Part shown: positions 1 to 20,528 of the stretch, piece by piece
Layout: every line of letters starts with the position of its first letter
Numbering within the stretch: the first letter of the stretch is position 1
Assembly (NCBI GenBank): GCA_022703765.1
Contig: JAKJHQ010000001.1
Span: forward strand, 17,854 to 81,853
Origin: Candidatus Wallbacteria bacterium
GTDB lineage: Bacteria; Muiribacteriota; UBA9980
Direction: 5' to 3'
DNA length: 64,000 nucleotides
Notes under the pieces: model-generated
Database searches by the model: none
The model's input: the letters and a program-made list of their open reading frames with translations, nothing else
Told to the model about the DNA's origin: nothing
Program-made: the position numbers and the translations under genes

Positions 1-2308
1 TAATAACCTTTTTTGCCTCGGCGCTTTCCGTATCGAAGTCATCAGGAAGATCTGAAATAAGCATCGATAAGGGAGGATAAAATTTAATGTCTTTTTTATT
101 TGGGAGCCATGGTTTTGATTTTAAAATTTTTAAAATTTCAGTTTCTTCTTTTGGATTTTTTGCCGTTGAGTAATAAAACGGATTTATGTTTCGCTTAAAA
201 GCATCGATTATAAATCTCCATAAAACGCAGGACTTAGAGATTGAAATGTTATCTAACAAATTATCAATACCTATAATAACAGGCTCTTTAAATATCGATT
301 TTTTATCGACCGGATTTGTTTTAAATCCAAGTTTATTTAATAAATCAATGTCATTGCTTTTAAAAATGTCCTCATATTCTTCAGATAAAAAGCAAATGTC
401 CGGATTTCCTTCAAAGAACTCTTCTAACATATCGTTACCAGAATACTTCAAAGGCAAAAACAATTCATCAGGCATAAAATAAGACAATTTTCCGGATAAT
501 TTATTCAAGCCGAGAAAGATCCTGGTTTCTTTAAGTTTTTGAATTAAAAGTTGTTTATTAGTAATATCTTTTCGAAAAATTTCAATTATTTTCTTTATAT
601 GGCATATGTTTTGGTCAACGGACGGCAAGACATCTGAATTGTATAAAGGCAAAATAAATTTAATTACTTCATCGATTTCATCAGGCTTTTTAATTCCGAT
701 AAGACTAAAGAAATCTTTCGTTAAATCACTTTCTGATATTCGCCTTTTAACCATCGAAAAATATGTATTGTTTTCATCAAATAAAAACACTTGAGGCCGT
801 TCATTTTCATCAAAAGGTTTAATATGGGAATCATTTTCAAGCCGGATAAATGGTTTATGCCTTAACAAGCCATCAGACGCGCAAGCGGCGGACTTTTTCT
901 GCCATAAAGAAATGCTTTTAGAAAGATAAAAATAAAAGTCAATAACCCATTCGTCGGATTGTTTTAATATAAAATCCATATCGAAAAGATCGGCGAATTT
1001 ATTGCCATCTATATTGTTTACTCGCAGTTTTTGCCTAAAATATAAAGCCAAATCTCTATATTTAAAAATATCCGGATGGATCATCCTGGCATTTATATTT
1101 TTAGTTAGTATATTTAAATTATTGTTTTGAGATAATAAATTTAATAATCTTGAGTTTTCAGCGTAATATGCGTTTTTATATTCGACATATCCCTCGTCAT
1201 CGTTTGGAATCAACTGTTCTTCTGACATAAGTTTTTCAAAAACTTTTTCATACGCGCTTCTAAATCTACTTTTTATAGGAAAATCAGATTCGTTGATAGG
1301 CAAAATATTTAAAAAATCCGGATTTAAAAAACCAAGTTTTTTGATTGATAAGATGCTATCGGATATCAATGTTGATATTTCACTGTTTAATTTTAAATTC
1401 CAAACATCGGCAGGCGGCACATTGTCTCTGGCTGGAGTTGTTTTATAGGGGCCTTGCACTAGAAATTTTAAACGCGTATCTATGTTAGTGGGAAAATAAA
1501 CTACAAGCTTTGAATCACTAATTTCTCTTATAGTTTCCGTTTTTGTTTTATCATCGAATTCAATTTTATAAGCAATTTCAACTTTCAAGTCAAGTTCATT
1601 ATTTTCTTCACTATTTACTTTTCTCTTAAAAACAAGCCATTTTTCGCCAATTTTTTTTGTAATATCCGAAACTATAACGATGCTGGACTGGTCATCGATA
1701 ATATTTACCTTCTTTTCGATTATACCTGCGGAACTTTGATTGATCCGCCATTCAAGTTTTTGAATATAATTTAAAAAAAGGATTGTCCTTACGTCGATTT
1801 CAATCAATTTCTTTTTAATTAAATCATATATTTCGTCTTTTGATCTTTTTTTATGCTCGAATTTGAAAACAAATTTTGTAATCTCCGAATTGTATTGAGT
1901 TTCGATAAGTTCAGGCAAAACTAAATTTTTTATATTAAAACTGTAGGTTTTGGAATAAATTTCTGGAGAATTTGTTATAGCATATACCGACTTAAAACCA
2001 ATTCCAAATTTGCCGATTTTATTGACGTCATCTTTTTTCGTGCTGTTACCGATGCTGGTAATCGAAGCGACGTCTTTAAACAAAAAACTAACACCGTCAT
2101 GAAAAAATTCAAGCCGGTCATCAAACAAAATAAAACTGACCGATTTAGCTTTTTGATCTTCCGCATTTTGAATTAATTCATAAATAAAATGAGAAGGATC
2201 GTCGTATAATCCGGAAAATATTTCTTCAAAATTGAAATTATTGTTAGGTCTTTTTAGAGCGTCAAGATATATTTTTCTATCATTAATCAGCTCATTAAAA
2301 TCATTCAT
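1..2308 (-). CDS. Large sacsin/MORC-like GHKL (Bergerat-fold) ATPase. The N-terminus lies in the window; the C-terminus runs past the window start, so more than 769 aa are present.
   Basis: An open minus-strand frame runs from ATG at 2306-2308 (GGAGG RBS at 2316-2320) to position 1 with no stop. The N-terminus carries Bergerat motifs: FIYELIQNAEDQKA (motif I, ExxxNxxD), HDGVSF (motif II) and GKFGIGFKSVY (motif III, GxxGxG). The six-frame track misses it because the stop lies outside the window. Confidence 0.6.
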   Translation of the reverse strand, partial: MNDFNELINDRKIYLDALKRPNNNFNFEEIFSGLYDDPSHFIYELIQNAEDQKAKSVSFILFDDRLEFFHDGVSFLFKDVASITSIGNSTKKDDVNKIGKFGIGFKSVYAITNSPEIYSKTYSFNIKNLVLPELIETQYNSEITKFVFKFEHKKRSKDEIYDLIKKKLIEIDVRTILFLNYIQKLEWRINQSSAGIIEKKVNIIDDQSSIVIVSDITKKIGEKWLVFKRKVNSEENNELDLKVEIAYKIEFDDKTKTETIREISDSKLVVYFPTNIDTRLKFLVQGPYKTTPARDNVPPADVWNLKLNSEISTLISDSILSIKKLGFLNPDFLNILPINESDFPIKSRFRSAYEKVFEKLMSEEQLIPNDDEGYVEYKNAYYAENSRLLNLLSQNNNLNILTKNINARMIHPDIFKYRDLALYFRQKLRVNNIDGNKFADLFDMDFILKQSDEWVIDFYFYLSKSISLWQKKSAACASDGLLRHKPFIRLENDSHIKPFDENERPQVFLFDENNTYFSMVKRRISESDLTKDFFSLIGIKKPDEIDEVIKFILPLYNSDVLPSVDQNICHIKKIIEIFRKDITNKQLLIQKLKETRIFLGLNKLSGKLSYFMPDELFLPLKYSGNDMLEEFFEGNPDICFLSEEYEDIFKSNDIDLLNKLGFKTNPVDKKSIFKEPVIIGIDNLLDNISISKSCVLWRFIIDAFKRNINPFYYSTAKNPKEETEILKILKSKPWLPNKKDIKFYPPLSMLISDLPDDFDTESAEAKKVI

Positions 2309-2363
2309 TAAAAACCTCCAAAACTTCTAATTTATAGTTAATTACATACGATGAACGGCGGTT

Positions 2364-3050
2364 TTATCTTCTAAACGGATTAATGTCATTGTTAGTGTGC
2401 AAAAAAACGTCGCCAATCGGTCTCACCTTTCTGTAATCTGTTTCATTATTATATCCTCCGAATCTGTTAACAAACATGCCATTTGAGAGCAAATACCACT
2501 TGTAACCGTGCTTCAACTTAGAAATTCCATGTTCTTTCATTAATTCAAGCAACGGTTTGACGCTATTGCTATTAAGATAATTATGTACAGTATTTAAAAC
2601 TTTTCTAATTTGAAGATCTGTTTCGTCAAATTGTTTTAAAAATTGGGATATTTCAACTTCTTCGCCTTCTATGACGTCTTCAATTTCACCATCTTCAACT
2701 TCGCCGTCTTCAATAAATTCATAGTCTAAATTTTTTCCTTCCCAAAAAGGTTGTATATCTCTGTTTGATCTTATAAATACATCGCCCAGTGAAGGAACTT
2801 GAGATACATGTCCCTGCTTTGAGCCATATCTGTTAACAAAATCGCCATTGACTTTTAAAAACCATTTTAAGGCGCCGTTTTCATTGTGATACAAGCAATC
2901 TACATTCATCTTCTCCATTAATTTAATAAGTTTGTGAACGCTTGTGCCTTTCAACTGACATGTGCTTCCGATCGGGACTAAAATTCCAAGATCAAGTAAT
3001 TTTTGAAATCCTATTTCGTGAAAAAATTCTATTGAATCGCGTTTATTCAT
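2364..3050 (-). CDS. Hypothetical protein made of two tandem copies of an unrecognised ~95-aa domain (W.L..G.FVNR[YF]GG ... GDVF...N.I[NQ]PF), joined by an acidic linker.
   Basis: ATG at 3050 with a GGGAGGG RBS. The halves are internally duplicated: KWFLKVNGDFVNRYGSKQGHVSQVPSLGDVFIRSNRDIQPF and KWYLLSNGMFVNRFGGYNNETDYRKVRPIGDVFLHTNNDINPF. The same domain opens the CDS at 6826..7941. Confidence 0.55.
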   Translation of the reverse strand: MNKRDSIEFFHEIGFQKLLDLGILVPIGSTCQLKGTSVHKLIKLMEKMNVDCLYHNENGALKWFLKVNGDFVNRYGSKQGHVSQVPSLGDVFIRSNRDIQPFWEGKNLDYEFIEDGEVEDGEIEDVIEGEEVEISQFLKQFDETDLQIRKVLNTVHNYLNSNSVKPLLELMKEHGISKLKHGYKWYLLSNGMFVNRFGGYNNETDYRKVRPIGDVFLHTNNDINPFRR

Positions 3051-3063
3051 TTCGTCCCTCCCT

Positions 3064-3405
3064 TTACATATTTATAATTTTCCATTGAGCGCTCTGACTG
3101 GGCCTGCCCTCTACATCTTTAACGCGACATTTAATTTTATGCAGGATGATTGGAAAAGTCGGCGTAGAACGACCCCTGGGCCATTTTCCGTTGCTTTCAG
3201 TATATGTCCCTTTTTCTTTATCAAAACAGTGGTCGCTTAACATTCTTCCTATATCAGCATTATATGAATCGCATACTGAAGTATCTTTATCTCTTAAATA
3301 TTGGCCTTTGATGGCAATTATAACGTCAATCGTATAAAATAAAGTCTTGCCTTCATCACGCCATTTTTTGATTAATTCTTCAATAAAAGTAACATGATCG
3401 AACAT
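3064..3405 (-). CDS. Small hypothetical protein of about 113 aa. The start was moved to an internal ATG that has a GAGGTG RBS.
   Basis: ORF 3064..3417. An ATG at 3403-3405 is preceded by GAGGTG. It sits 13 nt upstream of the next gene in the same orientation. No recognisable motif. Confidence 0.4.
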   Translation of the reverse strand: MFDHVTFIEELIKKWRDEGKTLFYTIDVIIAIKGQYLRDKDTSVCDSYNADIGRMLSDHCFDKEKGTYTESNGKWPRGRSTPTFPIILHKIKCRVKDVEGRPSQSAQWKIINM

Positions 3406-3504
3406 ATCGCACCTCACAATTCCGATTTTTATCTAATTTATTTACTCACATAACTAATAATTCTAACTTATTTTAAAATCAAAAAAATTATTAATTTTTT
3501 TAAT

Positions 3505-4803
3505 TTATAATGTTTCAATCTTCTTAAATTTCTCGATAATACTCTCGGTCACTGACTTTTCCGTTCTCGTTACAGCCTTCATTATATCGTCTTTAAGAAT
3601 GTGGTCACGCTCGATGTCATTCCGGTCGAAGGCGTCGAAGGCGGCTTCATCAACGATGTGCGCTATGTCTGCGCCGGAATAACCGTCAAGTGCGGCGGCT
3701 ATGTCTATCATTTCGGTTTCGCCGATCTGGCAGGCTTTGTCTTTAAGGTTGATTTTAAGGATTTTTAGGCGTTCTTCGGCGTTCGGCAGGCCTACATAAA
3801 ATTTCTTGTCGAAACGGCCGGGACGGAGGAAAGCTTTGTCGATTTTCTGCGGCTCGTTAGTGGCAGCTATAATGATTATCTGGCGGTCTTTTTCGTTGAA
3901 GAGCGTGCTTAATTGCGATAAAAGGACCGGCGTGATGCGCTCCATAACCGACGACGACTGGCCGTCGCGGGTCTTTAATATCCACTCGGCCTCATCCATG
4001 AATAGCACGGCGCGCGGCTGGCGTGCGATCTCGCTGAATAATTTTTCGAGGTTCTCCTCGGCCTCGCCGGGATAGCCTATTATGAATGAAGGGGTTATTT
4101 CGAAGAATTTCGCCTGTATCTCGCTGCTGATCGCGCGGGCAATAAGGGTCTTGCCCGTGCCGGGCGGACCGTAAAGGAGCATTCCGCCCCCGACGCGCAG
4201 TTTGAATTTGTCGGCGCGCTCAGGGTCCTTTGCGGGCGCGATGATGCGGCTTCGGATGAAGTTTTTGACCTGGTCGAGGCCGGCTACCTGATCGAGGTCG
4301 AAGCCGGCTTCTATTATCTGGCCGGGCAGGGCGGGCGGTTCGGCGTCGATCTCGAGGAATTCTTTGAGTTCGGGCGGCATGTCTTCGAGCGTGCCGTAGA
4401 ATAGTTTCAAGACTTTTTCGGTGATATCGGGGCCGTGAACCGGATATTGCGGGTATGAAAAGCATCCGAATTTCGCCAGTTTTAACTTGATTATTTTATC
4501 CAGGCGATCGAATGCGTTTTCTATGTATAAGATATTTGCGGTGACGGGGCGGACTTTGACATGAAGCGGATATTCGCCGCGGAACGCGCCCGGAACGAGA
4601 TTATAACCCGGCCGGTCTTCCGCCGCGAAAACGCCTATAAGATTTTGCCTTTCGGCATTATAAAGAAAGCCTATATGGCCTTTTTCAATGCTCTGCAGGT
4701 TGGCGTGATCGTATTTTACGCCGCCGAAGACGCCTTTTTCGATGCATTCGGCCTCCGTTTTGTTGTTGCAGATCCTGAAAAAGCACGGAACTTTTATCCT
4801 CAT
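3505..4803 (-). CDS. DCD-domain (PUA-like, EVE/YTH-related) protein fused to a classical AAA+ ATPase.
   Basis: The N-terminus has DCD motifs: FRICNNKTEAECIEKGVFGG, GFLYNAERQNLIGVFAA and PGAFRGEYPLHVKVRPV. The AAA module has Walker A GPPGTGKT, Walker B VLFMDEAE and second-region-of-homology ATNEPQKIDKAFLRPGRFD. The start was set at the second Met (AGGGGTGG RBS 5 nt upstream); the longest ORF begins at 4857. Confidence 0.75.
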   Translation of the reverse strand: MRIKVPCFFRICNNKTEAECIEKGVFGGVKYDHANLQSIEKGHIGFLYNAERQNLIGVFAAEDRPGYNLVPGAFRGEYPLHVKVRPVTANILYIENAFDRLDKIIKLKLAKFGCFSYPQYPVHGPDITEKVLKLFYGTLEDMPPELKEFLEIDAEPPALPGQIIEAGFDLDQVAGLDQVKNFIRSRIIAPAKDPERADKFKLRVGGGMLLYGPPGTGKTLIARAISSEIQAKFFEITPSFIIGYPGEAEENLEKLFSEIARQPRAVLFMDEAEWILKTRDGQSSSVMERITPVLLSQLSTLFNEKDRQIIIIAATNEPQKIDKAFLRPGRFDKKFYVGLPNAEERLKILKINLKDKACQIGETEMIDIAAALDGYSGADIAHIVDEAAFDAFDRNDIERDHILKDDIMKAVTRTEKSVTESIIEKFKKIETL

Positions 4804-4893
4804 AAAGACCACCCCTGTTAATGAATTAATTTTATCAATTATAAATTTATTTGTCAAATAATAGTTTAAGTAGATTTGATATTTTTTTATATG

Positions 4894-5283
4894 CTATCTG
4901 CCGTCTTCCTGACTTTCAATCCTCGCGATGCGTTTTCTTAATTCCATTAATAATTGGAACATGTTCATCTTCCGGAACAGCATTTCGCTTCTCATTTCGC
5001 TTAGCGCTCTTTCTCTTAGTTTCGCCTGCCGTCTTTCTTCTTTCTCAAGCTCAATCCGCTTCTGCTCTTCGTACTGACGTTTTAGCACGTCCAGTTTTTC
5101 TTTTTGCTTTGCCTGGATTTGCTGCCGGTATAACTTGACGTAAAGCGGTGCAAATCCAATTATAGGTCCAAGGATCGCGATATAGGGATTTTCTAAAGCA
5201 TAGTTGCCGCATATAAAGATGACGGCGATAATAAAAATCATCGATTTGACGTATACCCATATAAAATCAAACAGCGTTACCAT
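4894..5283 (-). CDS. Small membrane protein with two predicted TM helices and a charged coiled-coil C-terminus.
   Basis: GAGGAGGT RBS. Hydrophobic N-terminal segments IFIIAVIFICGNYAL and ILGPIIGFAPLYV, then a K/E/R-rich heptad region. Co-oriented within the cluster. Confidence 0.5.
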   Translation of the reverse strand: MVTLFDFIWVYVKSMIFIIAVIFICGNYALENPYIAILGPIIGFAPLYVKLYRQQIQAKQKEKLDVLKRQYEEQKRIELEKEERRQAKLRERALSEMRSEMLFRKMNMFQLLMELRKRIARIESQEDGR

Positions 5284-5378
5284 ATAAATACCTCCTCATC
5301 ATATTTGTAATAGCCGGAAATGGCAATAACATGAATACGAAAAGTTTGCGCTAATTCACTAAATTTGCCTTCATATGA

Positions 5379-6818
5379 TTAAATCGCTTCATCATCTGGT
5401 ATCTGTACATATTCGTTCCGTGACCTTTCGGCGAGGTCCGCCCGGCCGCATTTTTCGTAATATTCAATAGACAGACGGAAATGTTCTCGCGCGCCCCGCA
5501 TCGCGCCATAGGCGGCGAACTCGAGCCCGGCCGAATAGTGGAGCCGGCCCATGTAAAGCGCATTGGTAACGCCGCGCTCGCCGGCAGTTGCGATAGCACG
5601 GCAGTAAAGTTTTAGAGTAGTTTCATGATCGTCAAGCGCGTTTGAATACGCGTCGCAAATGCTCAATAAATCGCGCAGGGGCCTCACGTTATCATCGGAT
5701 ATCAGGCCCAGGTATAATTCGGCGGCGAGAGGCAGATAAGTTTCCGCCGCACCGGTTTCGCTAATGGCGATTGCGGCTTCGGCAATGCCTTTGTATGCAT
5801 CGGCAAGCAGAATGTCGCGGCCAGGCGAAGACGGCATATCCGCAAGCAGGCCGGACGCCGCGCTGAACGCTTCTAAGGCGCCGCGATAGTCGGTTACACA
5901 CATAAGTGAAGAGCCGCCGGTGTTTTCGATAGAAGCGAATACCTCGGGATCGTTAATGCCGCACTCTATCGTATGGCGCTTCAGATCGGCGTTATAAGAG
6001 ATCGCCATGCCGTACCAGCCCAGCTCGGCGCAGGCAAGAAAAGCGAGCTCATAGGCTTCGCGAAGATCGGCATATGGAAAAGAAACCGCCGAAAAGGGTT
6101 TTGGCGGAATATTGCCCGAATGCTCCACCGCCGCATAGCCGTGCTTTTCAATTAAGCCCTCATAAACGGATATCGCGCTGTTTAACTGGCGGAACGCTTC
6201 TTCATATCTGTCGGCCTCCAACAAATAACGGCCGTAGCAGCAATAATAATCGGCGACGGCCGGATCGTTGAGACCGCGCGCCTTCAATATCTCGATCAGC
6301 GCAAGACGCATGTCTTCGCACGCGCCGGCATATTCTTTAAGGGCGCAATGCGCGGCCGCGCGCTTTTTTAATATCATATATTTTTGAACGCTTTCGCTAC
6401 TATCCAGGTCGGACGCCGCGCCGGCTGCGTCACGCCACATTTCTGAGTCGTCGAGGGCCTTTAACGCTTCTTCGAAGCTCCCGTTCTCAATATGGATATA
6501 TGCCGCCGAGTAAAATGCGGTAGCAATGCCGGCTTTGTCCACCGCGCCGCCGCGCACGAAAGTTATGAGCGCCGATTCTATTAATTTAAGCGCCTGCTCG
6601 AAACGGCCGGCGTCATACTCACGCCAGGCTTCTTCGAGCAGCGCACGCGCTCGGTCGGCGCTCGAGCCGGCAAATTCGTCAATACGCGAGGCTGCAAGAG
6701 CAGAAAGTTCACTTATCGAAGGGACCGGTTCATCGGCGGGATCGTTTTGAGCGGCGCCCTCTCCGTGAGGGGTCTGAAAATATTCATCGAGCCTGTCTAA
6801 AAATTCTGAATCGCCCAT
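5379..6818 (-). CDS. TPR-repeat protein.
   Basis: Repeated helical motifs with A/L/Y/G spacing typical of TPR, for example FEQALKLIESAL, YEEAFRQLNSAISVYEGL and ALYMGRLHYSAGLEF. GC-rich gene, 7 nt downstream of the preceding gene. Confidence 0.65.
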   Translation of the reverse strand: MGDSEFLDRLDEYFQTPHGEGAAQNDPADEPVPSISELSALAASRIDEFAGSSADRARALLEEAWREYDAGRFEQALKLIESALITFVRGGAVDKAGIATAFYSAAYIHIENGSFEEALKALDDSEMWRDAAGAASDLDSSESVQKYMILKKRAAAHCALKEYAGACEDMRLALIEILKARGLNDPAVADYYCCYGRYLLEADRYEEAFRQLNSAISVYEGLIEKHGYAAVEHSGNIPPKPFSAVSFPYADLREAYELAFLACAELGWYGMAISYNADLKRHTIECGINDPEVFASIENTGGSSLMCVTDYRGALEAFSAASGLLADMPSSPGRDILLADAYKGIAEAAIAISETGAAETYLPLAAELYLGLISDDNVRPLRDLLSICDAYSNALDDHETTLKLYCRAIATAGERGVTNALYMGRLHYSAGLEFAAYGAMRGAREHFRLSIEYYEKCGRADLAERSRNEYVQIPDDEAI

Positions 6819-6825
6819 AATAACT

Positions 6826-7941
6826 TCACCTTCTTCCGCCCGCGGGCTTTCTTTTTAAATAAGCCTCCAGCGTGACCGCAAGCTGCGGGTTAGCGCAGGC
6901 GACCTTCAGCATCTCATAAAAATAATCGCCTTCGAGCTCCCGGTAGGCGTCAAGTATATCTTTCCAGCCGATAAGCCTTACCCGCGAAGGATTGCAGCCC
7001 GCCGGACGCAATCCTTCTTCATAGTCAGGCGCGCTTCCCTCGCCGCGGGGGGCGCCGGTTAATTCGGCCAGCAATCCGGCTTCAAATTCAGCCGTAGGAG
7101 AAAGAATAAGGCCGACATGCGCAAAGTTTTCGGGCGGCATGGCGTTGCGCTCCATGATAGTATTTATAACAGGCATCTGCCTGCGCATCTGGGCGGCGAG
7201 ATCGGACGCCGTCACGTAGTCGTACATCTTCGCCTCGACCACCACCAGGAATTTTTCGCCGCACGCCGCGCGCAGCAATATAACGATATCCGGCGTGTCG
7301 CGCTTTATATGCCATACTTCCCGCCAATCCAGGGCGGATTCTTTGAGCGAATATTCGGTGTAGAAACATATTTCAGAATTCGAATATTCAGTTTTGATAA
7401 ATTTATCCGGAACGCCGGCCATTTTAAGAAAAATATGCAGACGGCTGAAACGGCCGCCGCAGACTATATTCGGAAATACGCATGAAGTCCAGTAGCGTTC
7501 TTTCCTGTTAAGCGGCAGCGAGTTTATCATATCGTTCATTTCACCGGCGCGCTCGAGATCGGTTGCGCGAAAGGCGCGGGCTGCAGAGCCCGGGAGTTCG
7601 GGGCGCCCGGACGGGTTCAAGCCGCCAGGTTTCTTGCAGTAAAAGGGATTAATGCGCCTGTTGGCCCCTCTAAATACCTCACCCATAGAAGAAACCGATG
7701 TTAGCTTAACCGGTTCGTCATGGCCGCCATAACGGTTTACGAAAACGCCGCCGGACTCCAGCGACCAGTCTTCGCCGAATTCCAGCCCGGAAACGCCTTT
7801 CTGCTCCATAAAAGCCATAAGCGGCGCAACGCTCGCGCCAGTAAGAATAAGCTTTTCACCGTTGATTATCCCGAGCTTCATAAGCTTGCATAGCCCCGCA
7901 GACTCCAAAAATACGGTAATGTTTTCAACAACGCCTTGCAT
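6826..7941 (-). CDS. Fusion of the unrecognised ~95-aa domain (N-terminus) to a PD-(D/E)xK nuclease-fold domain (C-terminus).
   Basis: AAAGGGGTGA RBS. The N-terminal copy is DWSLESGGVFVNRYGGHDEPVKLTSVSSMGEVFRGANRRINPF. The C-terminal half has a textbook motif, TPDIVILLRAACGEKFLVVVEAKMYD (PD ... ExK), with an upstream acidic EICFYTEYS. Confidence 0.6.
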   Translation of the reverse strand: MQGVVENITVFLESAGLCKLMKLGIINGEKLILTGASVAPLMAFMEQKGVSGLEFGEDWSLESGGVFVNRYGGHDEPVKLTSVSSMGEVFRGANRRINPFYCKKPGGLNPSGRPELPGSAARAFRATDLERAGEMNDMINSLPLNRKERYWTSCVFPNIVCGGRFSRLHIFLKMAGVPDKFIKTEYSNSEICFYTEYSLKESALDWREVWHIKRDTPDIVILLRAACGEKFLVVVEAKMYDYVTASDLAAQMRRQMPVINTIMERNAMPPENFAHVGLILSPTAEFEAGLLAELTGAPRGEGSAPDYEEGLRPAGCNPSRVRLIGWKDILDAYRELEGDYFYEMLKVACANPQLAVTLEAYLKRKPAGGRR

Positions 7942-7973
7942 ATTATCACCCCTTTTTAAATTATAAAATAAGA

Positions 7974-8080
7974 CTCATTTTTATTTCATGCGGGCAGGTA
8001 TTAGTGAATAGTGTACAGTGAATAGTGAATAATGAATAGTTAAGGTTGGGGATCGCCCTGCGAGCTTTATATATAAAATA
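7974..8080 (+). repeat. Intergenic repeat family, head module (H), copy 1.
   Basis: tcatttcatgcgggcagg, then tandem agtgaatag-like units, then the ggggatcgccctgcgagc hairpin, then tttatatataaaatat. About 85% identical to 32538-32640. Inverted copies lie at 37420-37523 and 43291-43355. Confidence 0.8.
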
Positions 8081-8288
8081 TAAAAATATTCTACCTACTT
8101 TTAATTTTAGCAAAATATTATAAAAAAGTCAATAATATTCAAAAATATTTTTACCCTTTTTTAAATATTATTACCCCCTTCTGTTTTAAGTTGATTTATC
8201 AATGCATTCCTTTATACCCAAAAGCTCCCACATCAGGCGGCATAATTAAAACGCTTACCATAAAACCATAATTTCAATTTACTGAACG

Positions 8289-8606
8289 CCATAATTGCTG
8301 CGCAGACGCGAGCGAAGCGCGCGTCTGCAAAATAAAAAAACAGAGATGAGCGGAGTAGATTTGAGAAAAAGAAATAATAAATTAGAGCAGAGTAAAGTTG
8401 AGTAGAAATTTTATAGAAAAAGAGAGAAGAGAGAAAGAAAGGCTAAATAAAGTAAAACAAAAAAAAGAGAAAAGCAAACCGAATTAAAGCCGCGTCAGAA
8501 AAGCAGTCGCCGCAAGGCAATAAAGCGTCAGGCAGTTTAGGGGTTGGAAGGGATTTTAAGGGAAGGAAGGGGCCATCGGCACCTTGCCTTCCCTTATCAA
8601 AAAACA
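8289..8606 (+). repeat. Composite structured element, copy 1. It has a perfect 9-bp-stem hairpin, a purine-rich tract of about 180 nt and a long imperfect palindrome.
   Basis: ccataattgctgcgcagacgcgagcgaagcgcgcgtctgcaaaa at 8289-8332. An A/G-rich tract at 8333-8520. aaagcgtcaggc...aggggttggaagggattttaagggaaggaaggggccatcggcaccttgccttcccttatcaaaaaa at 8522-8606. The same modules occur in the same order at 23590-23820. Confidence 0.75.
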
Positions 8607-8633
8607 GGATATTTAAATGGAATAATCGGGGTT

Positions 8634-9281
8634 TTATTTTTCCAGCCATTCGGTCAGTATGGATTTGATATTATTTACGGCCCTGCGTTTTTCGGGGCTG
8701 CTTTTGCCTATATACTGCGTATCCAGAAGGAATTGAAAGGTTTTCACGGCCAGTTCGTCGGATATTTGGGTTTGTCTGCCCGAAGAAAATCCGGAGGCGG
8801 TTTCTTCGCCGGCCTCTACGGAGCGTTCCGCGGAGTCGGCCTGCGGAGCCGGGGCCGCATGGGTTTCGGCTGTTTTAAGAAGTTCGGTCACGCCTTCGCG
8901 GTCGCCTTTTTCGATCGGGCTTTCATCCACAATATGAAGCGCTTCGGCGGCGTCGATTTCGTTGAACATGACCGATTTAAAAAGTTTGGACTGTTCGCTG
9001 GAAAATTCGGCCCATTTCCTGTCATGGTAAAGAAATCTTGAAAATACGCCTATTTCGAGCGGCGATATGACGGCCGCGTCGGCGCCCGCTTCTTTGATGA
9101 GAAGCATATATATCTTGCTGTTATCGATATCGGTTATGAATATGCGTTTATTCCAGCGTGCGAATTTATTGTTGAAGAAATCCGCGGCGTCGAATATGTC
9201 TTTCGACCGTTTGCGGAAGTCGGCGTTCAGGCCCTTTTCTGAAGGCGTCTTGAGCGCCACTATTACTTTGAAAATTTTCAT
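8634..9281 (-). CDS. Hypothetical protein.
   Basis: 215-aa ORF with an AAGGCGG RBS and mixed, non-repetitive composition. The overlapping plus-strand ORF (8544..9041) is G/F-rich, consistent with an antisense artefact. Confidence 0.5.
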   Translation of the reverse strand: MKIFKVIVALKTPSEKGLNADFRKRSKDIFDAADFFNNKFARWNKRIFITDIDNSKIYMLLIKEAGADAAVISPLEIGVFSRFLYHDRKWAEFSSEQSKLFKSVMFNEIDAAEALHIVDESPIEKGDREGVTELLKTAETHAAPAPQADSAERSVEAGEETASGFSSGRQTQISDELAVKTFQFLLDTQYIGKSSPEKRRAVNNIKSILTEWLEK

Positions 9282-13607: not shown

Positions 13608-14117
13608 TTTCTAACATAATATAATTTTTTTCAGACTGGTTCGATTTCATGATTTTGACTATAAAAAATTTTTCGCGAAAGTCGAAAATTTTCTGCAGTT
13701 TAGCTTCGTGCAAAGGCGGCTGCATTCGTTTTTTTTCACGTTTCCGCCCGTCCTTATTTGTGAAAGCCCTAATTTTATTAAACATATTACACATTCAGAC
13801 GAATCAGTATTTTTCGACTCATCCGTCACGTTATTTTTGCAGATTACAGGGCTTAAAAAAATAAGCGCCGTATTGGGTTTTTCGTTGAAGTATTTTAAAT
13901 AAGCTTTCACCATAATCCGCCAACGCTCCTTTCTGTTTTTACTTACGCAAAAAATATACAAAAGCACCGGTTATATTTTTATAAGCTGTTATAAAAATAC
14001 AACAACATATGAACGTTAAAGCATAATACATGCCTTAAAAAATATATTATGTTTGAATAAGCGGGAAAAGCGGAGCGTTTATTAGCTTTTTATAACCATC
14101 GTTCACGGTTTAAAAGT

Positions 14118-16442
14118 TTAATCGGTAATATTGAATTTTTTCATGAGTCGCCAGAGAGTCACCCGGCTGATGTTAAGAGCTTTAGACGTTTTGATTTTGT
14201 TATATTTATATTTAACAAGATATTCCAGAAGCGTTTCTATTCCAATTTCACATTTTTTACATTTCGTTTCTACCTGGTTACATTTCGTTTCAGCAAAAAG
14301 CGATTCGCCTTTACAATTCGTTTCATCATAATTTGCAACTATAGAATCTACTTTTTCTTTAATTATTTTGTTATAAAAAGCAGAATATTCTTCAGGCAGA
14401 TCGCTAAGTTTAATTTTTCCATCCCTGCAGATTATATATGCGTATTCCAGCATATTATATAGCTGCCTTGCATTTCCAGGAAAATCATAAGTTAGAAGTA
14501 TCGTCCTTACTTCATCCGATAAAGAGTTAATATTTTTATTTTCCTTAATGTTAAGTCTATTTATGAAACTATAAGCAAGCAGTTCGATATCTTCCCTGCG
14601 CTCCCGAAGAGGCGGTATATTAAAATAAATCACGCGCAACCTGTAAAAAAGATCTTCTCTGAATTTTCCTTCCTCAACAAGTTTTTTTAAATTCCTGTTG
14701 GTAGCCGCTATCAATCTGAAATTAACTTTCACGGTTTTTGCCGACCCCAGCGGTTCGAAACTTTTTTCTTCAATCACCCTAAGTAATTTAACTTGCAGAT
14801 GCATAGGAACTTCTCCAATTTCGTCAAGAAATATAGTTCCTTTATCGGCGGCGGCGAATTTGCCTGGTTTGTCGGTTTTGGCGTCCGTAAAAGCGCCTCT
14901 GACATAACCAAAAAGTTCTGATTCCAGAAGTGTTTCAGGAATCGCCCCGCAGTTTATAACTACGAAAGGGCCGCCATGCCGTGGAGATAAATTATGAATA
15001 GTTCTGGCTATAAGGCTTTTTCCGGTTCCGGACGGGCCTTCTATCATTACGTTACCGCCGCATTCTGAAATGGAAGGCAGCGTTTCAAAAACAAATTTCA
15101 TATATTCGCTTTTTCCAACGACATCTCCAAGCGTATAATTTTTTAACGATTCTTTTTTTACAAGATCGATTTTTTGTTCAAGCTCGATTTTTTCAGTAAC
15201 ATCAGTTACCAGAGCAAGCCTTCCGGCGGCATTGCCCTCGCGGTCCGTTAAAGCAGACGCTGACACTTTGACATATATTTTTTTGCCGCTTTTATGCTTG
15301 AGCAATGCTTCATAATGCCTGGCGTTTCCTCGAGTTAATTTTGAATAAACGTCATAATAAGAATTAAGATTGTCCTGATAAATAAATTCACCGACGTTTT
15401 TCTTTTCTATTTCGGCAGCAGTATACCCAATTATATTAGCCATTTGCCGGTTCAAATATATCGTATTGCCATTGTTATCGATAACCCAGAATCCTTCGCT
15501 GGACATTTCAATAAGTTCATGATAACGTTTTTCGCTCTCTATAAAGGCGTTTTCAACGTTAACGCGCGCGCTTATATCACGAACTAAAGTAATTATCGCC
15601 GGAATTTTTTGAAATTCTGTCATACTGGCGCTTATCTCTACCGGAAATACAGTTCCGTCACTTGCGACATAATGGGATTCATAAAGAAATTTTCCATACT
15701 TTTCAATTTTTTTAAGCCGAAAATCTATCTCTAACCGATGAAATTGAGCGTTAATATCCGCGATAGTCAATCCAATCAATTGATGTTTTTCATATTTTAA
15801 TTTTTGGCAGGCGTGTTCATTAACTTCAAGTATTTTTCCGCTCAAATCGGTAATAATGATTGAGTCGCTGATGGAAGCGAATATTTTTTTCAACTTTAGT
15901 TCAGAGTCAATTATAACTATTTCAGCCTTTTTATACTCGTTTATATCACTTATAGTCATACGGCAGGTTTTTTCTTCGCCGCACCCTTTCGCAATTGAAG
16001 ATCGAATCAAAACCCATTTTTTTTTATCGCCGCAATTCAGCCTTATTTCACAGTTCTGCGGCTCGCAAATTTGAAAAAGTTTTTTACAATGCATATAAAA
16101 AATATCCTGGTCCTGATAGCATATAAAATTCGTAAAATTAGCATTAACAAGTGCATCTCTTTTAAGCCCTAAAAATTCGGCCGCGGTATAATTAGCTTCT
16201 ATAATCAGCCCGTTTTCAGAAATGGTACAGTACCCCACGGGTGCAAGATCATATAATTCAAAATATTTTGCCTTCGAAACGTTAAGTTCGGCGTGAATTC
16301 TGCACAACTCTTCGTTTTGCATCTCCAGCTCAATTTGATAAATGCGGAGGTTATGAAGAAGTTTTCGAGTTTCTTCGAGAGAAAGAGAATCAATATCTCC
16401 ACAGCCGGTTATATATTTACGATTAACGTTAAAATTGCTCAT
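14118..16442 (-). CDS. Sigma-54-dependent transcriptional activator with N-terminal coiled-coil and PAS domains and no receiver domain. Its GAFTGA loop reads GAFTDA.
   Basis: GPSGTGKSLIARTIH Walker A. ESELFGYVRGAFTDA. FLDEIGEVP Walker B. R-finger region REDLFYRLRVIYFNIPPLRERREDI. C-terminal Fis-type HTH SKALNISRVTLWRLMKK. Confidence 0.85.
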   Translation of the reverse strand: MSNFNVNRKYITGCGDIDSLSLEETRKLLHNLRIYQIELEMQNEELCRIHAELNVSKAKYFELYDLAPVGYCTISENGLIIEANYTAAEFLGLKRDALVNANFTNFICYQDQDIFYMHCKKLFQICEPQNCEIRLNCGDKKKWVLIRSSIAKGCGEEKTCRMTISDINEYKKAEIVIIDSELKLKKIFASISDSIIITDLSGKILEVNEHACQKLKYEKHQLIGLTIADINAQFHRLEIDFRLKKIEKYGKFLYESHYVASDGTVFPVEISASMTEFQKIPAIITLVRDISARVNVENAFIESEKRYHELIEMSSEGFWVIDNNGNTIYLNRQMANIIGYTAAEIEKKNVGEFIYQDNLNSYYDVYSKLTRGNARHYEALLKHKSGKKIYVKVSASALTDREGNAAGRLALVTDVTEKIELEQKIDLVKKESLKNYTLGDVVGKSEYMKFVFETLPSISECGGNVMIEGPSGTGKSLIARTIHNLSPRHGGPFVVINCGAIPETLLESELFGYVRGAFTDAKTDKPGKFAAADKGTIFLDEIGEVPMHLQVKLLRVIEEKSFEPLGSAKTVKVNFRLIAATNRNLKKLVEEGKFREDLFYRLRVIYFNIPPLRERREDIELLAYSFINRLNIKENKNINSLSDEVRTILLTYDFPGNARQLYNMLEYAYIICRDGKIKLSDLPEEYSAFYNKIIKEKVDSIVANYDETNCKGESLFAETKCNQVETKCKKCEIGIETLLEYLVKYKYNKIKTSKALNISRVTLWRLMKKFNITD

Positions 16443-16462
16443 TTGCTATCCTTTTTTCATTT

Positions 16463-17806
16463 TCAAACAGCAGTTTCTGGTTCTTTTAAGCTTTTCGAAG
16501 CTTTTTCTTTCATATCGAAAGGTATGGTTACGACAAAGCGGCTGCCTGAGCCCAACCGGCTTTCGACAAAAATTTTTCCGTTAAGCATTTCGACTATGCC
16601 TTTAACAATTGAAAGGCCCAGCCCGGTTCCGCCGTAACGCCTCGTGCTGGAATCATCGACCTGATAAAATCTTTCAAAAATTTCATCAACGTCATCGCTT
16701 GAAATTCCTATGCCGGTATCGGAAACCTCAATAGATACATTCGAAACATTTTCTTTTTTTTCAGATTCATAAATTTTAACTTTGACTTCGCCTTTAGAGG
16801 TAAATTTGATAGCGTTCGCAATCAGGTTTACGATAATCTGTTTAATCCTGAAAGGATCGCCGTACAATTTATAATTTATAGCGGGGTCTATTTCATAGCC
16901 AAGCTCGATTTTTTTCTTTTCAGCAAGTATAGACATCATTTTTACAGTTTTTTCGGCAATATCATTGATATCGAATATATTTTTTTCGAGCTTTAACTTT
17001 TTCGCTTCGATTTTTGAAAAATCCATTATATCATTGATAATTTCCAGCAGATTATTTGACGAATATTTGATCCAGCCAACAAGCTCGGCCTGCCTGTCGT
17101 CGATCCCGCTCATCGAAACCAGCTGTGAAAAACCGATTATGGCGTTTAAAGGCGTGCGCAGCTCATGAGTTACATTGGCCAGGAACCTGCTTTTAGCGAT
17201 ATTGGCGGCTTCGGCTTTTTCCCTGGCGGCGATCAGCGATTCTTCGATAGTTTTAAGGTAGTTTATGTCGCTGACGGCGGTACGGCAAACCATTGCCCCT
17301 TGCTCGTCGCAGGCGGTTAGCGATTCGAGCCTCGCCCAGAAGCATGAAGAATCTTTTCTTTTAAGCCTCAACTCACAATTTCCGGAGAAGGGTTTTTTGA
17401 AAAGGTTCTTCCTGTAATGGTAATAGATATCCTGGTCCTCCGAATATATATAATCGGTAAAATGTTTTTTGACAAGTTCGTTTCTCTGCAGGCCGAGAAG
17501 GTTTGCAAGGGTAAGGTTAGCCTGTGTAATGACCCCTTTTTCGTCTATGCTCAGATATCCGTTGGGGGCCAGATCGTAAAGTTCGAAGTAACGCGCCACG
17601 GACAGTTCCAGCTCGTGCCGCGTCCTTCGTAATTCATCGTTCTGCATTTCCAGCTCGATCTGGTGCACGCGCAGTTCGTGTACCAGACGGCGGGCGTCTT
17701 CAATCGAGAGATTCTGTTCCGCATTATTTTCTTCATTAAGCGATTTTTGCTCCGCAACCCATCGCAGCCTGGCTATTTCATCCATAGCAGCTTGATTACC
17801 GGCCAT
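16463..17806 (-). CDS. PAS-sensor histidine kinase.
   Basis: HisKA H-box ANVTHELRTPLNAIIGFSQLV. HATPase_c N/G boxes NLIANAIKFT and DTGIGI ... GGTGLGLSIV. The N-terminal coiled-coil plus PAS resembles that of the gene at 14118..16442. Confidence 0.9.
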   Translation of the reverse strand: MAGNQAAMDEIARLRWVAEQKSLNEENNAEQNLSIEDARRLVHELRVHQIELEMQNDELRRTRHELELSVARYFELYDLAPNGYLSIDEKGVITQANLTLANLLGLQRNELVKKHFTDYIYSEDQDIYYHYRKNLFKKPFSGNCELRLKRKDSSCFWARLESLTACDEQGAMVCRTAVSDINYLKTIEESLIAAREKAEAANIAKSRFLANVTHELRTPLNAIIGFSQLVSMSGIDDRQAELVGWIKYSSNNLLEIINDIMDFSKIEAKKLKLEKNIFDINDIAEKTVKMMSILAEKKKIELGYEIDPAINYKLYGDPFRIKQIIVNLIANAIKFTSKGEVKVKIYESEKKENVSNVSIEVSDTGIGISSDDVDEIFERFYQVDDSSTRRYGGTGLGLSIVKGIVEMLNGKIFVESRLGSGSRFVVTIPFDMKEKASKSLKEPETAV

Positions 17807-17834
17807 AAATTACCTCACGATCAAATCTAAATTT

Positions 17835-20528
17835 TCAAAGTAAACCTTTAATGCGCTTTATTTCGGTAATTTCCGAAAATGTTATAACCGCGCCTTCGAT
17901 AACGTTTTCCATCGTACGGTAAGGCTGAATGCGCATCTGATACCATTGGCCGTCGGGCGTCTGCACTTCGGACTCTTTCGGTATCAACGTATCCAGAACC
18001 GTCCGGGTATCGTAAACGAGATCGGCGTAACCTTTGATTTTGCAAACTATATCGCTAATGGGCCTTCCTATGTCGGCGGAAATAAGGTTAATGACGCGCC
18101 TGACGGCGGGCGTGAAACGACGCACGCGAAGCTGATGATCGAGAAAAAGCGTGCCTATATTAGTTCCGGCGAGCAGGTTATTCATATCGTTATTCACCCG
18201 GGAAAGATCGGCCACTTTCTGCTGCAGTTCAGTATTTACAGTGGAGAGTTCCTCGTTGACCGATTGAAGCTCCTCTTTTGACGTTTCGAGCTCCTCGTTG
18301 GCCGACTGCAGTTCTTCGTTGACCGATTGAAGCTCTTCGTTGGCGGATTTAAGCTCTTCGTTCGAAGTCTCCATTTCTTCGAGCGTAGAGCGCAAATATT
18401 CTTCCTTGGCCTTCAAACGAAGTTCCAGCTCGTTTATTTTCGCAAGTTCGCCGCCGTCCGGCGGCGAGCCGGCATCTTCTTTTTTTATATAATTTTCGAG
18501 AGCGGTTTCACCGCCGTCTTCTAAAATAATCATAAACAGAGCGGGTGATCCTTCGGCGCAGGGCAGCGGCAGCGGTCTAACTTTTAAATCGACGTTAGTG
18601 AAATTGCCGTTAGTTTTTACTTTAAGCCCCGGATAACTGACCGGGGCGTTATTGGCCGCGGCCTTGTGAAGCGCGCTGGTGAGCTCGTAGCGCAATCCTT
18701 CGCGGGCCATTTTTAATACGTTCACTCCGGCTTCGCCCGGCGACGGTTCAAGATACTTGCCCGTTCGCCCGTGTATATATAAAATATCTCCGCGTTCGTT
18801 AACGATAACGCACGGCGGAGCGTACTGTAAAAGAAGCTCACGCTCGGTCATTTCACGGATTGAAATTTTGGCGGCCGCGACATTTTCGCGGGAACGTTTG
18901 GCCGCGAAATCGCGTTCCGCCATTGGAGTCATAATACTGGCGCGTGCGTGGGCGCCGGAACACGCGGTAATATCTTTTCGCTGATAAAGCTTCCATTTTC
19001 TGTCTATCACCGAAAATAAATCGGCGAAATCTCCTATCGATTCTGAATTTCCCAGAAACAAATAGCCGGAAGCGTTTAAGGCGTAATGAAACATGGGTAT
19101 GATTTTTTTTTGAAGCTCGCCGTCCATATAAATTAAAAGATTGCGGCAGCTTATAATATCTATTTTCGAAAACGGCGGGTCTTTAATAAGGCTCTGCTCC
19201 GAAAATATGAGCATATCGCGTATGATCTTTTTAATGCGGAAAGTCCCGTCTTCGGGATTATGAGTAAAAAAACGCGACAACCTTTCAGGCGAAATATCCG
19301 CCGCGATTGAAGCCGGATATATTCCGGCGCGGGCGGCCTCTATGGCTCGCGCGTCGATATCGGTGGCGAAAATCTGTATCTGGCATGAGCCTTTTAGCCG
19401 TTCGAGATGTTCTTGAAAAATAATAGCTATGGAATAAGCTTCTTCGCCAGTAGAACAGCCGCTCACCCAGACGCGTAAAGCCGTTCCGGAAGGCTTTTTG
19501 CTTAAAACAGATTCGACGATATTTTTATCGAAATTTTCGAAAGCTTCGGCGTCGCGGAAAAAATTAGTTACGCCGATAAGCAGGTCGCGAAAGAGCGCTT
19601 CAACTTCTTCCGGTTTTTTTTGAATGTATTGAACGTAATTTTCGAGCGTTTCTATTTTATTGACCATCATGCGTCTTTCGACGCGGCGTGATATGGTATT
19701 GGATTTATAATGTGAAAAATCATGGCCCGTAAATGAGCGAAGTATAATAAATATTTTTTTAAGAGCGTTTTCCGCTTTAACTTCGGACGCCGCCGAAGGG
19801 ACCAGGCCTTTACCGAAAGCGTTTTTAACGTAAGCGATCAATTGTTCCGGCATCTGCTGGGGAGTTAATATATAATCCACAAGTCCGGTGGCAATGGCGC
19901 TTCTGGGCATTCCGTCGTATTCGGTCGAATCGGGGCTCTGCGCCATGACCATTCCGCCTTCGCCCTTTACCGCGCGGATCCCGTGCATGCCGTCGTTTCC
20001 GGTTCCGGAAAGGACTATGCAAATGGAACGTTCTCGCTGGTCCTGCGCAAGTGAGCGGAAGAAAAAGTCTATAGGCAGCCTCATTCCACGGGGCGAAGAC
20101 GGCTCCATCAAATGAAGCGTACCGTTTAAAAAGGCCATGTCTTTATTAGGCGGAATTATATAGGCGCAGTCGGGCTGGACCTTCATCGCATCCTCGACCT
20201 CAAAAACCTTCATTCGCGTATAGCGTTTAACGAGCTCGGCGAGGATGCTTTTGTGGTCGGGCGCAAGGTGCTGCACGAGTACGAAAGCCATTCCGGTTTC
20301 GACGCCGGGCGGCATGGCTGAAAAAAAAGCCTCGAAAGCGCCGAGCCCTCCGGCCGACGCGCCGATGCCCACTACCGCAAAATTTGAGTTATCGGCGTTT
20401 TTTTTATGATTATCGCCGGTAATAACGGGGCCGCGGCCCGCGACGGATATTGCGGAAATCTTATCATCCGGCGTTATTATCTTTTTCTTCTTTGTAATAG
20501 CACACCTTCTAATCGCTAAATATTTCAA
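17835..20528 (-). CDS. CheB methylesterase / CheR methyltransferase fusion protein with a C-terminal coiled-coil and PAS-like region.
   Basis: CheB core AVVGIGASAGGLGAFEAFFSAMPP ... VLVQHLAPDH ... GTGNDGMHG. CheR region FFRDAEAFENF ... RVWVSGCSTGEEAYSIAII. Heptad repeats EELQSVNEELQSANEEL. The start is uncertain: the ORF opens on TTG and no in-frame ATG occurs before the CheB core. Confidence 0.85.
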   Translation of the reverse strand: MKYLAIRRCAITKKKKIITPDDKISAISVAGRGPVITGDNHKKNADNSNFAVVGIGASAGGLGAFEAFFSAMPPGVETGMAFVLVQHLAPDHKSILAELVKRYTRMKVFEVEDAMKVQPDCAYIIPPNKDMAFLNGTLHLMEPSSPRGMRLPIDFFFRSLAQDQRERSICIVLSGTGNDGMHGIRAVKGEGGMVMAQSPDSTEYDGMPRSAIATGLVDYILTPQQMPEQLIAYVKNAFGKGLVPSAASEVKAENALKKIFIILRSFTGHDFSHYKSNTISRRVERRMMVNKIETLENYVQYIQKKPEEVEALFRDLLIGVTNFFRDAEAFENFDKNIVESVLSKKPSGTALRVWVSGCSTGEEAYSIAIIFQEHLERLKGSCQIQIFATDIDARAIEAARAGIYPASIAADISPERLSRFFTHNPEDGTFRIKKIIRDMLIFSEQSLIKDPPFSKIDIISCRNLLIYMDGELQKKIIPMFHYALNASGYLFLGNSESIGDFADLFSVIDRKWKLYQRKDITACSGAHARASIMTPMAERDFAAKRSRENVAAAKISIREMTERELLLQYAPPCVIVNERGDILYIHGRTGKYLEPSPGEAGVNVLKMAREGLRYELTSALHKAAANNAPVSYPGLKVKTNGNFTNVDLKVRPLPLPCAEGSPALFMIILEDGGETALENYIKKEDAGSPPDGGELAKINELELRLKAKEEYLRSTLEEMETSNEELKSANEELQSVNEELQSANEELETSKEELQSVNEELSTVNTELQQKVADLSRVNNDMNNLLAGTNIGTLFLDHQLRVRRFTPAVRRVINLISADIGRPISDIVCKIKGYADLVYDTRTVLDTLIPKESEVQTPDGQWYQMRIQPYRTMENVIEGAVITFSEITEIKRIKGLL

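Follow-up and report, generated by a model that had tools for sequence, protein, structure and literature searches.

Tiamat, which is included in PADLOC and DefenseFinder, is described as a single-gene defence system of the PD-(D/E)xK type (bioRxiv 10.1101/2024.10.26.620412), and the paraMORC3 proteins combine a GHKL ATPase with a C-terminal nuclease of the restriction endonuclease (RE) fold (E-D-ExK) and with linked helicases, for which a role in DNA looping or remodelling coupled to cleavage was proposed in a paper that stresses superfamily 2 (SF2) helicases and methylases (Iyer, Abhiman and Aravind, 2008; PMC2292703). With regard to recognition, the N-termini of canonical McrB proteins are small modular DNA-specificity domains (PMC11090510), and the PUA-like DCD domain, which is predicted to read modified bases, occurs in prokaryotes fused to McrB-like proteins, PD-(D/E)xK nucleases and methyltransferases, with no classical AAA+ fusion among them (Bell et al., 2020; PMC7641849). 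Here we describe a gene cluster at the left end of a 64,000-nucleotide (nt) stretch of DNA from a Candidatus Wallbacteria bacterium (GenBank assembly GCA_022703765.1, contig JAKJHQ010000001.1, positions 17,854 to 81,853; hereafter the window), whose genes we number g0 to g8 from right to left. It is very likely, in our judgement, that this cluster is a defence island in which a Tiamat-type unit (module II, g5 to g8) stands beside a new nuclease module (module I, g0 to g4), each module carrying a small unannotated domain that we call domain A.

The window holds the right-hand part of the island only; the end of g7 and the whole of g8 lie beyond its edge. The features within it are as follows.

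8634-9281, minus strand: g0, 215 amino acids (aa), a conserved partner upstream of g1 that the initial annotation had not included
7942-8633, no strand: spacer between g0 and g1, 692 nt, AT-rich, with short direct repeats and promoter-like sites
6826-7941, minus strand: g1, domain A followed by a PD-(D/E)xK nuclease
5379-6818, minus strand: g2, 479 aa, a TPR protein
4894-5283, minus strand: g3, 129 aa, two transmembrane (TM) segments and a charged helical tail
4829-4857, minus strand: promoter-like site just upstream of the g4 ATG, a consensus match
3505-4803, minus strand: g4, 432 aa from the ATG, a DCD (PUA-like) domain and an AAA+ ATPase
3064-3405, minus strand: g5, 113 aa, no library match
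2364-3050, minus strand: g6, two copies of domain A in tandem with an acidic linker between them
1-2308, minus strand: g7, the first 769 aa of a TmtA homologue, the gene being cut by the window edge

Evidence for a role in defence comes from the match of g7 to TmtA, from the adjacency of a type I Zorya operon in a related locus, and from the fusion of domain A to defence effectors in other genomes. By its sequence, g7 is a TmtA homologue. The PADLOC model of TmtA (Tiamat; PDLC03972) matches the part inside the window with an E value of 7.3e-66 and the full-length protein, which is 1056 aa long in contig L001 (GCA_029557635.1), with 4.8e-78. The N-terminus matches Pfam SACS (E 2.7e-18) and, above the cut-off, the NCBIfam model of the sacsin ATP-binding domain (E 2.5e-26); sacsin is also matched in the PDB (E 8e-8), and the Bergerat-fold motifs ELIQNAED and GKFGIGF are visible in the sequence. 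The C-terminus, which lies outside the window and was read from L001, carries a NOV_C/DUF3883 PD-(D/E)xK domain (aa 956-1023, E 3.6e-7, above the cut-off). This combination of a sacsin-type GHKL N-terminus with a C-terminal PD-(D/E)xK domain is what g7 shares with Tiamat. In contrast to the Tiamat models, which span 1063-1782 positions, g7 reaches only 1056 aa, and its main match covers profile positions 30-654 of 1302, plus a second stretch. Moreover, Tiamat is by definition TmtA alone, whereas TmtA here forms part of a conserved unit, g5-g6-TmtA-helicase, and in another Candidatus Wallbacteria locus (L014) TmtA and the helicase make up a single fusion protein.

Contig L001, which is 99.9% identical to the window over positions 1-8295 (8295 nt) and reaches 2.2 kb further left, bears out the expectation that g7 would exceed 769 aa, and it places the helicase gene g8 beyond the window edge with an 8-nt overlap with g7. 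The g8 product (579 aa in L008) is a superfamily 1 (SF1) helicase with AAA_11/AAA_12 domains that matches the C-terminal helicase region of MkoA (E 2.6e-59), but no PLD domain is encoded in the neighbourhood, and the locus is not a Mokosh system. The initial annotation had stated that the cluster matches no named system. This still describes module I, whose g0-g1-TPR core fits no PADLOC system, but it does not describe the Tiamat homologue g7 or the MkoA-like g8. In their architecture, g7 and g8 also repeat the paraMORC3 theme of a GHKL ATPase, an RE nuclease and a helicase; they differ from it in that g8 is an SF1 (Upf1/MkoA-like) enzyme, that no methylase is present here, and that a domain-A protein accompanies the ATPase.

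That domain-A protein is g6, whose two copies (2733-3050 and 2370-2660) match the domain A hidden Markov model (HMM) with i-Evalues of 2e-35 and 3e-39 and which matches the N-termini of the g1 family by BLASTP (E 1e-15). A homologue search with g6, limited by its word index, returned two near-identical matches only, and g6 had no tblastn match in plasmids or phages. The g5 product matched nothing in any library, PHROGs or PDB sequences; it is kept only in close relatives, and there always in the order g5-g6-TmtA. In L008, which is ~90% identical to the window cluster, after the series g4-g5-g6-TmtA-helicase come a 206-aa gene with 26% guanine plus cytosine (GC) and then a convergent type I Zorya operon, which encodes ZorA, a ZorB of the OmpA type and a ZorC with EH_Signature (L008:7328-12147). 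A simpler arrangement is seen on the 4.05-kb contig L073, where a lone domain-A protein, a single-copy relative of g6 (44% identity), is encoded directly upstream of a SACS+NOV_C protein 30% identical to g7; only these two genes are present, on a contig too short to exclude neighbours. On plasmids, TmtA homologues have helicase or NERD genes as neighbours, and a Qat system as well.

Module I is built around g1, in which domain A (aa 1-105; 7627-7941) precedes a PD-(D/E)xK nuclease (aa ~135-365) whose predicted catalytic residues D218, E236 and K238 are conserved. Nothing in Pfam, NCBIfam or PADLOC matched g1, g5 or g6. Likewise, g0 had no match in Pfam, PADLOC, PHROGs or PDB sequences, g1, g3, g5 and g6 had none in PHROGs, and no PADLOC model matched g1 or g2, although g2 is recognized by Pfam as a TPR protein (TPR_12, E 1.9e-8). 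The g1 nuclease family is scarce: we found 37 cluster matches among 5.8 billion proteins and, in a scan that used the nuclease-family alignment, 62 loci in 185,579 species genomes, with none of the family in viral contigs.

The partners of g1 are constant wherever the nuclease carries domain A: g0 and a TPR protein are then always present. Homologues of g0 (44-65% identity) lie directly upstream of every such g1 homologue for which upstream sequence is available (L004, L005, L006, L012, L013 and L014), and the farther flanks differ among these loci. A g2 homologue (25-53% identity) adjoins g1 in L004, L006, L007, L012 and L013, and in L014 the TPR protein is encoded just upstream of g1. Because the g0-g1-TPR set occurs in at least six lineages with different outer flanks, we conclude that this module is mobile.

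What accompanies the core varies. In one set of loci (L004, L006 and L012) the order is g0-g1-TPR-VIT/VWA-95 aa-'DNA_pol3_alpha'-like protein of 373-420 aa, and L007 has the same set without the VWA gene; all four carry g0-g1-g2 without g4 to g8. The additional genes lie at L004:12906-16818, L006:13004-16623, L012:12675-15942 and L007:3394-5007. The conserved 95-aa protein is Asn/Gly-rich, the sole match of the 373-420-aa protein is to the DNA_pol3_alpha palm (nucleotidyltransferase) domain, and neither of these nor the VIT-VWA protein is found in PADLOC. The second set comprises the window lineage and L014, and in L014 the order is g0-TPR-g1-95 aa-g4. Next comes a TmtA::helicase fusion whose product is at least 2650 aa long; its N-terminal part resembles TmtA (E 1.4e-67), and its C-terminal part is an SF1 helicase. 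The L014 locus lacks g3, g5 and g6; g3 is also missing from L004, L006 and L012, and L013 keeps a fragment of g4.

These arrangements bear on whether g0 to g8 form one integrated machine of nine to ten genes, that is, a complex in which the DCD-AAA+ protein, the TPR protein and the TmtA-helicase pair jointly control two nucleases. The genes point the same way and are closely packed, both halves contain domain A, and L014 keeps g0, the TPR protein, g1, g4 and TmtA::helicase at 29-61% identity despite a new gene order and a fusion. Base composition also changes at the same place in two distant lineages. In the window, GC content is 53-55% in g1 and g2, 50% in g4 and 30-37% in g5 to g7, so that the TmtA-like gene is much richer in AT than g4 and g1 (30% versus 50-55% GC; window 1-3417), and in L014 (13096-21047) the TmtA-like gene has 19-22% GC versus 40-44% in its neighbours; this sharp drop at the junction of g4 and TmtA can be counted in favour of a single machine. 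Against it stand the four loci in which g0-g1-g2 occurs without g4 to g8 and with the PolIII-alpha-like partner (and, except in L007, the VIT-VWA partner), the record of TmtA as a single-gene system, the two genes of L073 (subject to the length of that contig), the promoter-like site before g4, and the absence of g5 and g6 from L014. We regard such an integrated machine as unlikely. The initial annotation had proposed a single seven-gene system, which was not established by this comparison, given the four genomes with g0-g1-g2 alone and the GC break after g4. It had also suggested a search for conserved synteny of the DCD-AAA+, nuclease and GHKL genes; this trio is indeed kept in one distant genome (L014), but elsewhere g0-g1-g2 occurs without g4 to g8. 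The preferred reading of two modules within one island leaves room for contact between them, and we consider it possible but doubtful that modules I and II physically form one machine.

The wider g1 family includes forms that depart from the layout seen in the window. Nucleases of the family that lack domain A carry instead a different C-terminal domain of ~80 aa, have no conserved neighbours across the 47 loci, and by analogy would behave like solitary restriction enzymes. The ~80-aa domain (P0016-P0037; alignment columns ~515-625) is unannotated, has the motif mGR.gG..G..L..D..tG.W....YE....N.NWF, and is duplicated in P0024 and P0026; a relationship between it and domain A was considered and rejected, since hhalign shows none. 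In L013 (5704-6687), g1 is split into a domain-A open reading frame (106 aa) and a nuclease open reading frame (209 aa) with only the g4 fragment downstream, and this may reflect either decay of the copy or a true two-gene form. A further homologue, P0010 (L006:10001-11224), has a low-complexity insert of five GGYASGGA repeats within the linker that joins domain A to the nuclease.

Within module I, g4 joins a DCD domain (Dev_Cell_Death, E 3.7e-13; ~4537-4773) to an AAA+ ATPase of the classical clade, with its core at 3790-4182 (AAA, E 1.3e-33) and its lid at 3619-3705 (AAA_lid_3). Cdc48/p97 proteins are the closest solved relatives of the ATPase part (E 6e-83), the best models are PF00004 and Cdc48/FtsH/PAN, and a match to AAA_5 is marginal (E 8.8e-5). 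On inspection of the sequence, the Walker A (GPPGTGKT) and Walker B (DEAE) motifs and the RPGRFD arginines are intact, and the Y-P-G pore loop is kept, its aromatic residue included. A full-length homologue (61% identity) is encoded next to g1 in L014. The source bacterium is uncultured, with relatives from activated-sludge metagenomes, and a metagenome scan with the DCD region of g4 found two short activated-sludge contigs only. In plants, DCD proteins have been connected with cell death, and the fusion of a DCD domain to a Cdc48-type ATPase is of interest in itself.

McrBC and Type IV restriction systems had been named as the closest analogues, and the comparison of reader, NTPase and nuclease is a reasonable one: as in McrBC, a small reader domain sits on an AAA+ NTPase and a PD-(D/E)xK nuclease is encoded nearby. 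However, the g4 ATPase falls into the Cdc48/FtsH classical clade and outside that of the McrB GTPases, which is marked by AAA_5/COG1401 with an NxxD signature; the DUF2357 domain of McrC is missing from g1, and the TPR, two-TM and g0 partners have no McrBC counterpart. The AAA+ part of g4 also matches the IetA models of Ietas (E 4.5e-30), but only through the generic AAA+ region; IetA has no DCD domain, no IetS-like protease is encoded in the window, L001 or L008, and g4 is not assigned to that system.

The g3 protein has two hydrophobic segments and, after them, a helix with many charged residues, and a homologue (29% identity, E 5e-10) lies between g1 and g2 in L007. Its KwaA-like and S_4TM matches are sub-threshold (for KwaA, 16-17 bits versus the NCBIfam cut-off of 100 bits), and no KwaB is present, so that the locus does not qualify as Kiwa. 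A membrane protein of this kind, together with a protein-remodelling ATPase of the Cdc48/FtsH type that has kept its pore-loop aromatic, could fit an abortive-infection or toxin type of system, in which the AAA+ unfoldase would free the g1 nuclease from an inhibitor (g0 or domain A), activate g3 so that the membrane is damaged, or both, and the cell would be killed in place of a selective cleavage of invader DNA; IetA-type AAA+ proteins do occur in known defence systems. We find this decidedly unlikely, considering how far the g3 matches fall below curated cut-offs, that g3 is missing from L004, L006, L012 and L014, and that nothing in the data marks g0 as an inhibitor.

Domain A connects the two modules with a much broader set of proteins. 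The ~95-aa domain that the initial annotation had found in g1 and twice in g6 is confirmed as unannotated: it belongs to no Pfam family, resembles no fold in the PDB, and is matched by no Pfam effector-associated domain (EAD) or Death-like model. A profile of 14 copies, run against 1.84 billion proteins with a threshold of E<=1e-3, identified 207 cluster representatives. Roughly half are stand-alone proteins of ~100 aa, and the others have two or three tandem copies or carry domain A as an N-terminal fusion. The fusion partners are NucS_C (13), AAA_15/AAA_21 (7), HNH (6), FRG (5) and protein kinase (3, one with an FGE-sulfatase), and further fusions involve Schlafen AlbA_2, TIR_2, SIR2_2, nSTAND3, a KAP NTPase, GmrSD_N, AAA_5 and N6_Mtase. 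In L078, domain A is joined to AAA_15/21 and followed by an HNH protein (a Septu-like arrangement) near DndB, and in L077 a protein with three domain A copies and nSTAND3 adjoins a NERD-UvrD helicase. The latter protein (P0041; L077:2611-5961) has a precomputed match to PF28530 (DUF8426) that probably covers its N-terminal 260 aa and not domain A; DUF8426 was rejected as a name for domain A, as g1, g6, P0047 and P0104 lack that precomputed match.

The most telling fusion for function is found in L084, where domain A precedes AAA_5 and McrB_lid, McrC is the overlapping next gene, and domain A thereby replaces the N-terminal specificity domain of a genuine McrB. Because that position is held in canonical McrB proteins by DNA-specificity domains (PMC11090510), we read domain A as a target-recognition module and not as a homotypic adaptor. 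By this analogy we lean towards domain A being a reader of a nucleic acid or another ligand, and binding by the DCD domain of g4 would likewise be an expectation drawn from analogy.

The adaptor alternative nevertheless deserves attention. Kaur, Burroughs, Iyer and Aravind (2020/2021) reportedly described effector-associated or Death-like adaptor domains in NTPase conflict systems, and domain A resembles these in being one small domain found on many effectors (nucleases, SIR2, TIR), on NTPases (STAND, KAP, AAA_5 and ABC-type), alone and in tandem. Two separate proteins of the window cluster carry it, and g6 could in principle bridge the g1 nuclease to the TmtA-helicase pair through A-A contacts. 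A homotypic adaptor would, as a rule, be expected on two or more different proteins of one locus, but every other locus examined has a single domain-A gene (L004, L006, L007, L012-L014, L073, L075-L078 and L084), the window lineage alone having two; domain A also takes the place of the DNA-specificity domain in L084. We therefore view adaptor function as quite unlikely.

From the gene content, domain identities, conserved catalytic residues, synteny and domain A fusion repertoire described above, we infer a ligand, a set of protein contacts, an order of activation and a coupling of modules. Domain A and DCD would bind a feature that marks nucleic acids as non-self, most probably a base modification or a nucleotide produced from it. 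In module I, reader binding would license the g1 nuclease, with the TPR protein and a DCD-AAA+ hexamer serving as assembly or gating factors in a role like that of McrB and McrC but with an unfoldase-type ATPase, and with g0 and g3 as accessory proteins. In module II, recognition for the TmtA-helicase pair would come in trans from g6; the pair would use ATP to load on or loop DNA, and the NOV_C nuclease would cut it. In L014, g4 travels with g0 and g1 (61% identity for g4) and directly precedes the TmtA::helicase fusion. Our best overall explanation, to which we attach moderate confidence on the strength of sequence comparison, is thus a mobile anti-phage or anti-plasmid island of two gene modules with a common reader domain that acts by this mechanism. 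The defence-island reading of the initial annotation is upheld by the TmtA homologue, by type I Zorya in L008 and by the McrBC, Septu-like, GmrSD, SIR2, TIR, STAND and KAP contexts of domain A. A more ambitious combination seems doubtful to us, namely that domain A is a new modified-base reader family of many defence systems, that module I is a new nucleoside triphosphate-dependent restriction system in which a Cdc48-like unfoldase with a PUA-like reader gates a nuclease, and that this system is coupled to the Tiamat GHKL-helicase motor in a machine with two nucleases and three readers.

Several observations weigh against the favoured mechanism. Classical-clade AAA+ proteins usually act on proteins and not on DNA. 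The charge of domain A is not consistently basic (median isoelectric point ~8, bimodal), and DNA binding is therefore not certain. Linkage of modules I and II beyond the window lineage rests on one genome, L014. Finally, in L075 a gene with two copies of domain A stands alone between UDG and RecG, a housekeeping-like context. This last locus could also favour an explanation outside defence, in which the cluster serves the repair of DNA or some other housekeeping function; repair, too, employs NucS-type nucleases and GHKL ATPases such as MutL, and the genes to the right of g0 in the window are of a housekeeping kind (VanX-like peptidase, transglutaminase, permease, sigma-54 activator, histidine kinase and CheB/R). 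We give this explanation very little weight. The nuclease family is extremely rare and has a patchy distribution (62 of 185,579 species genomes), the flanks are variable and the GC content atypical, and the TmtA match, the Zorya adjacency and the fusions of domain A to typical defence effectors all argue for defence.

New in the island are domain A, the g0-g1-TPR module, the fusion of DCD to a Cdc48-like ATPase, and the accessory genes of Tiamat; the components and the logic are familiar. If the island functions as proposed, a reader or specificity domain would be named for ~200 'hypothetical' protein families, and the annotation of McrBC, Septu-like, GmrSD, SIR2, TIR and STAND systems would improve. 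The g0-nuclease-TPR set, with DCD-AAA+ or with VWA and PolIII-alpha-like partners, would be a new candidate defence module absent from PADLOC, and Tiamat would gain a domain-A protein and an SF1 helicase as accessory genes.

With respect to the extent of the cluster, the seven minus-strand open reading frames g1 to g7 are present at the positions first given, and all the domain calls made for them were verified. Close packing also stands, but the spacers, which in order from g1 to g7 are 7, 95, 90, 99, 13 and 55 nt, range from 7 to 99 nt and not from 7 to 95 nt. Both limits of the cluster had been misplaced. On the left, the remainder of g7 and g8 extend past the window edge, and on the right, the supposed boundary at a repeat element at 7974 is passed by the conserved g0. 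A mobile repeat element at that position was rejected: only three to four GTGAATAGT-like direct repeats are present, at 7995-8036, ~55-95 nt upstream of the g1 start, and these could serve as an operator. Scans of the window with Rfam and for tRNAs gave no match. A second low-GC stretch (36-41%) at window positions 14001-18000 encodes two PAS proteins, a sigma-54 activator and a histidine kinase, and adjoins a CheB-CheR-PAS fusion, and by Pfam it is not defence-related. Promoter-like sites occur on the minus strand of the g0-g1 spacer at 7960-7989 and 8104-8132, where such matches are no commoner than in shuffled sequence and count as leads only. The site before g4 (4829-4857) reads TTGACA-17-TAAAAT with a TG and agrees with the consensus at 11 of 12 positions, as a consensus match only; judged from this sequence, the TTG at 4857 is more likely to be part of its -35 box than the start codon of g4.

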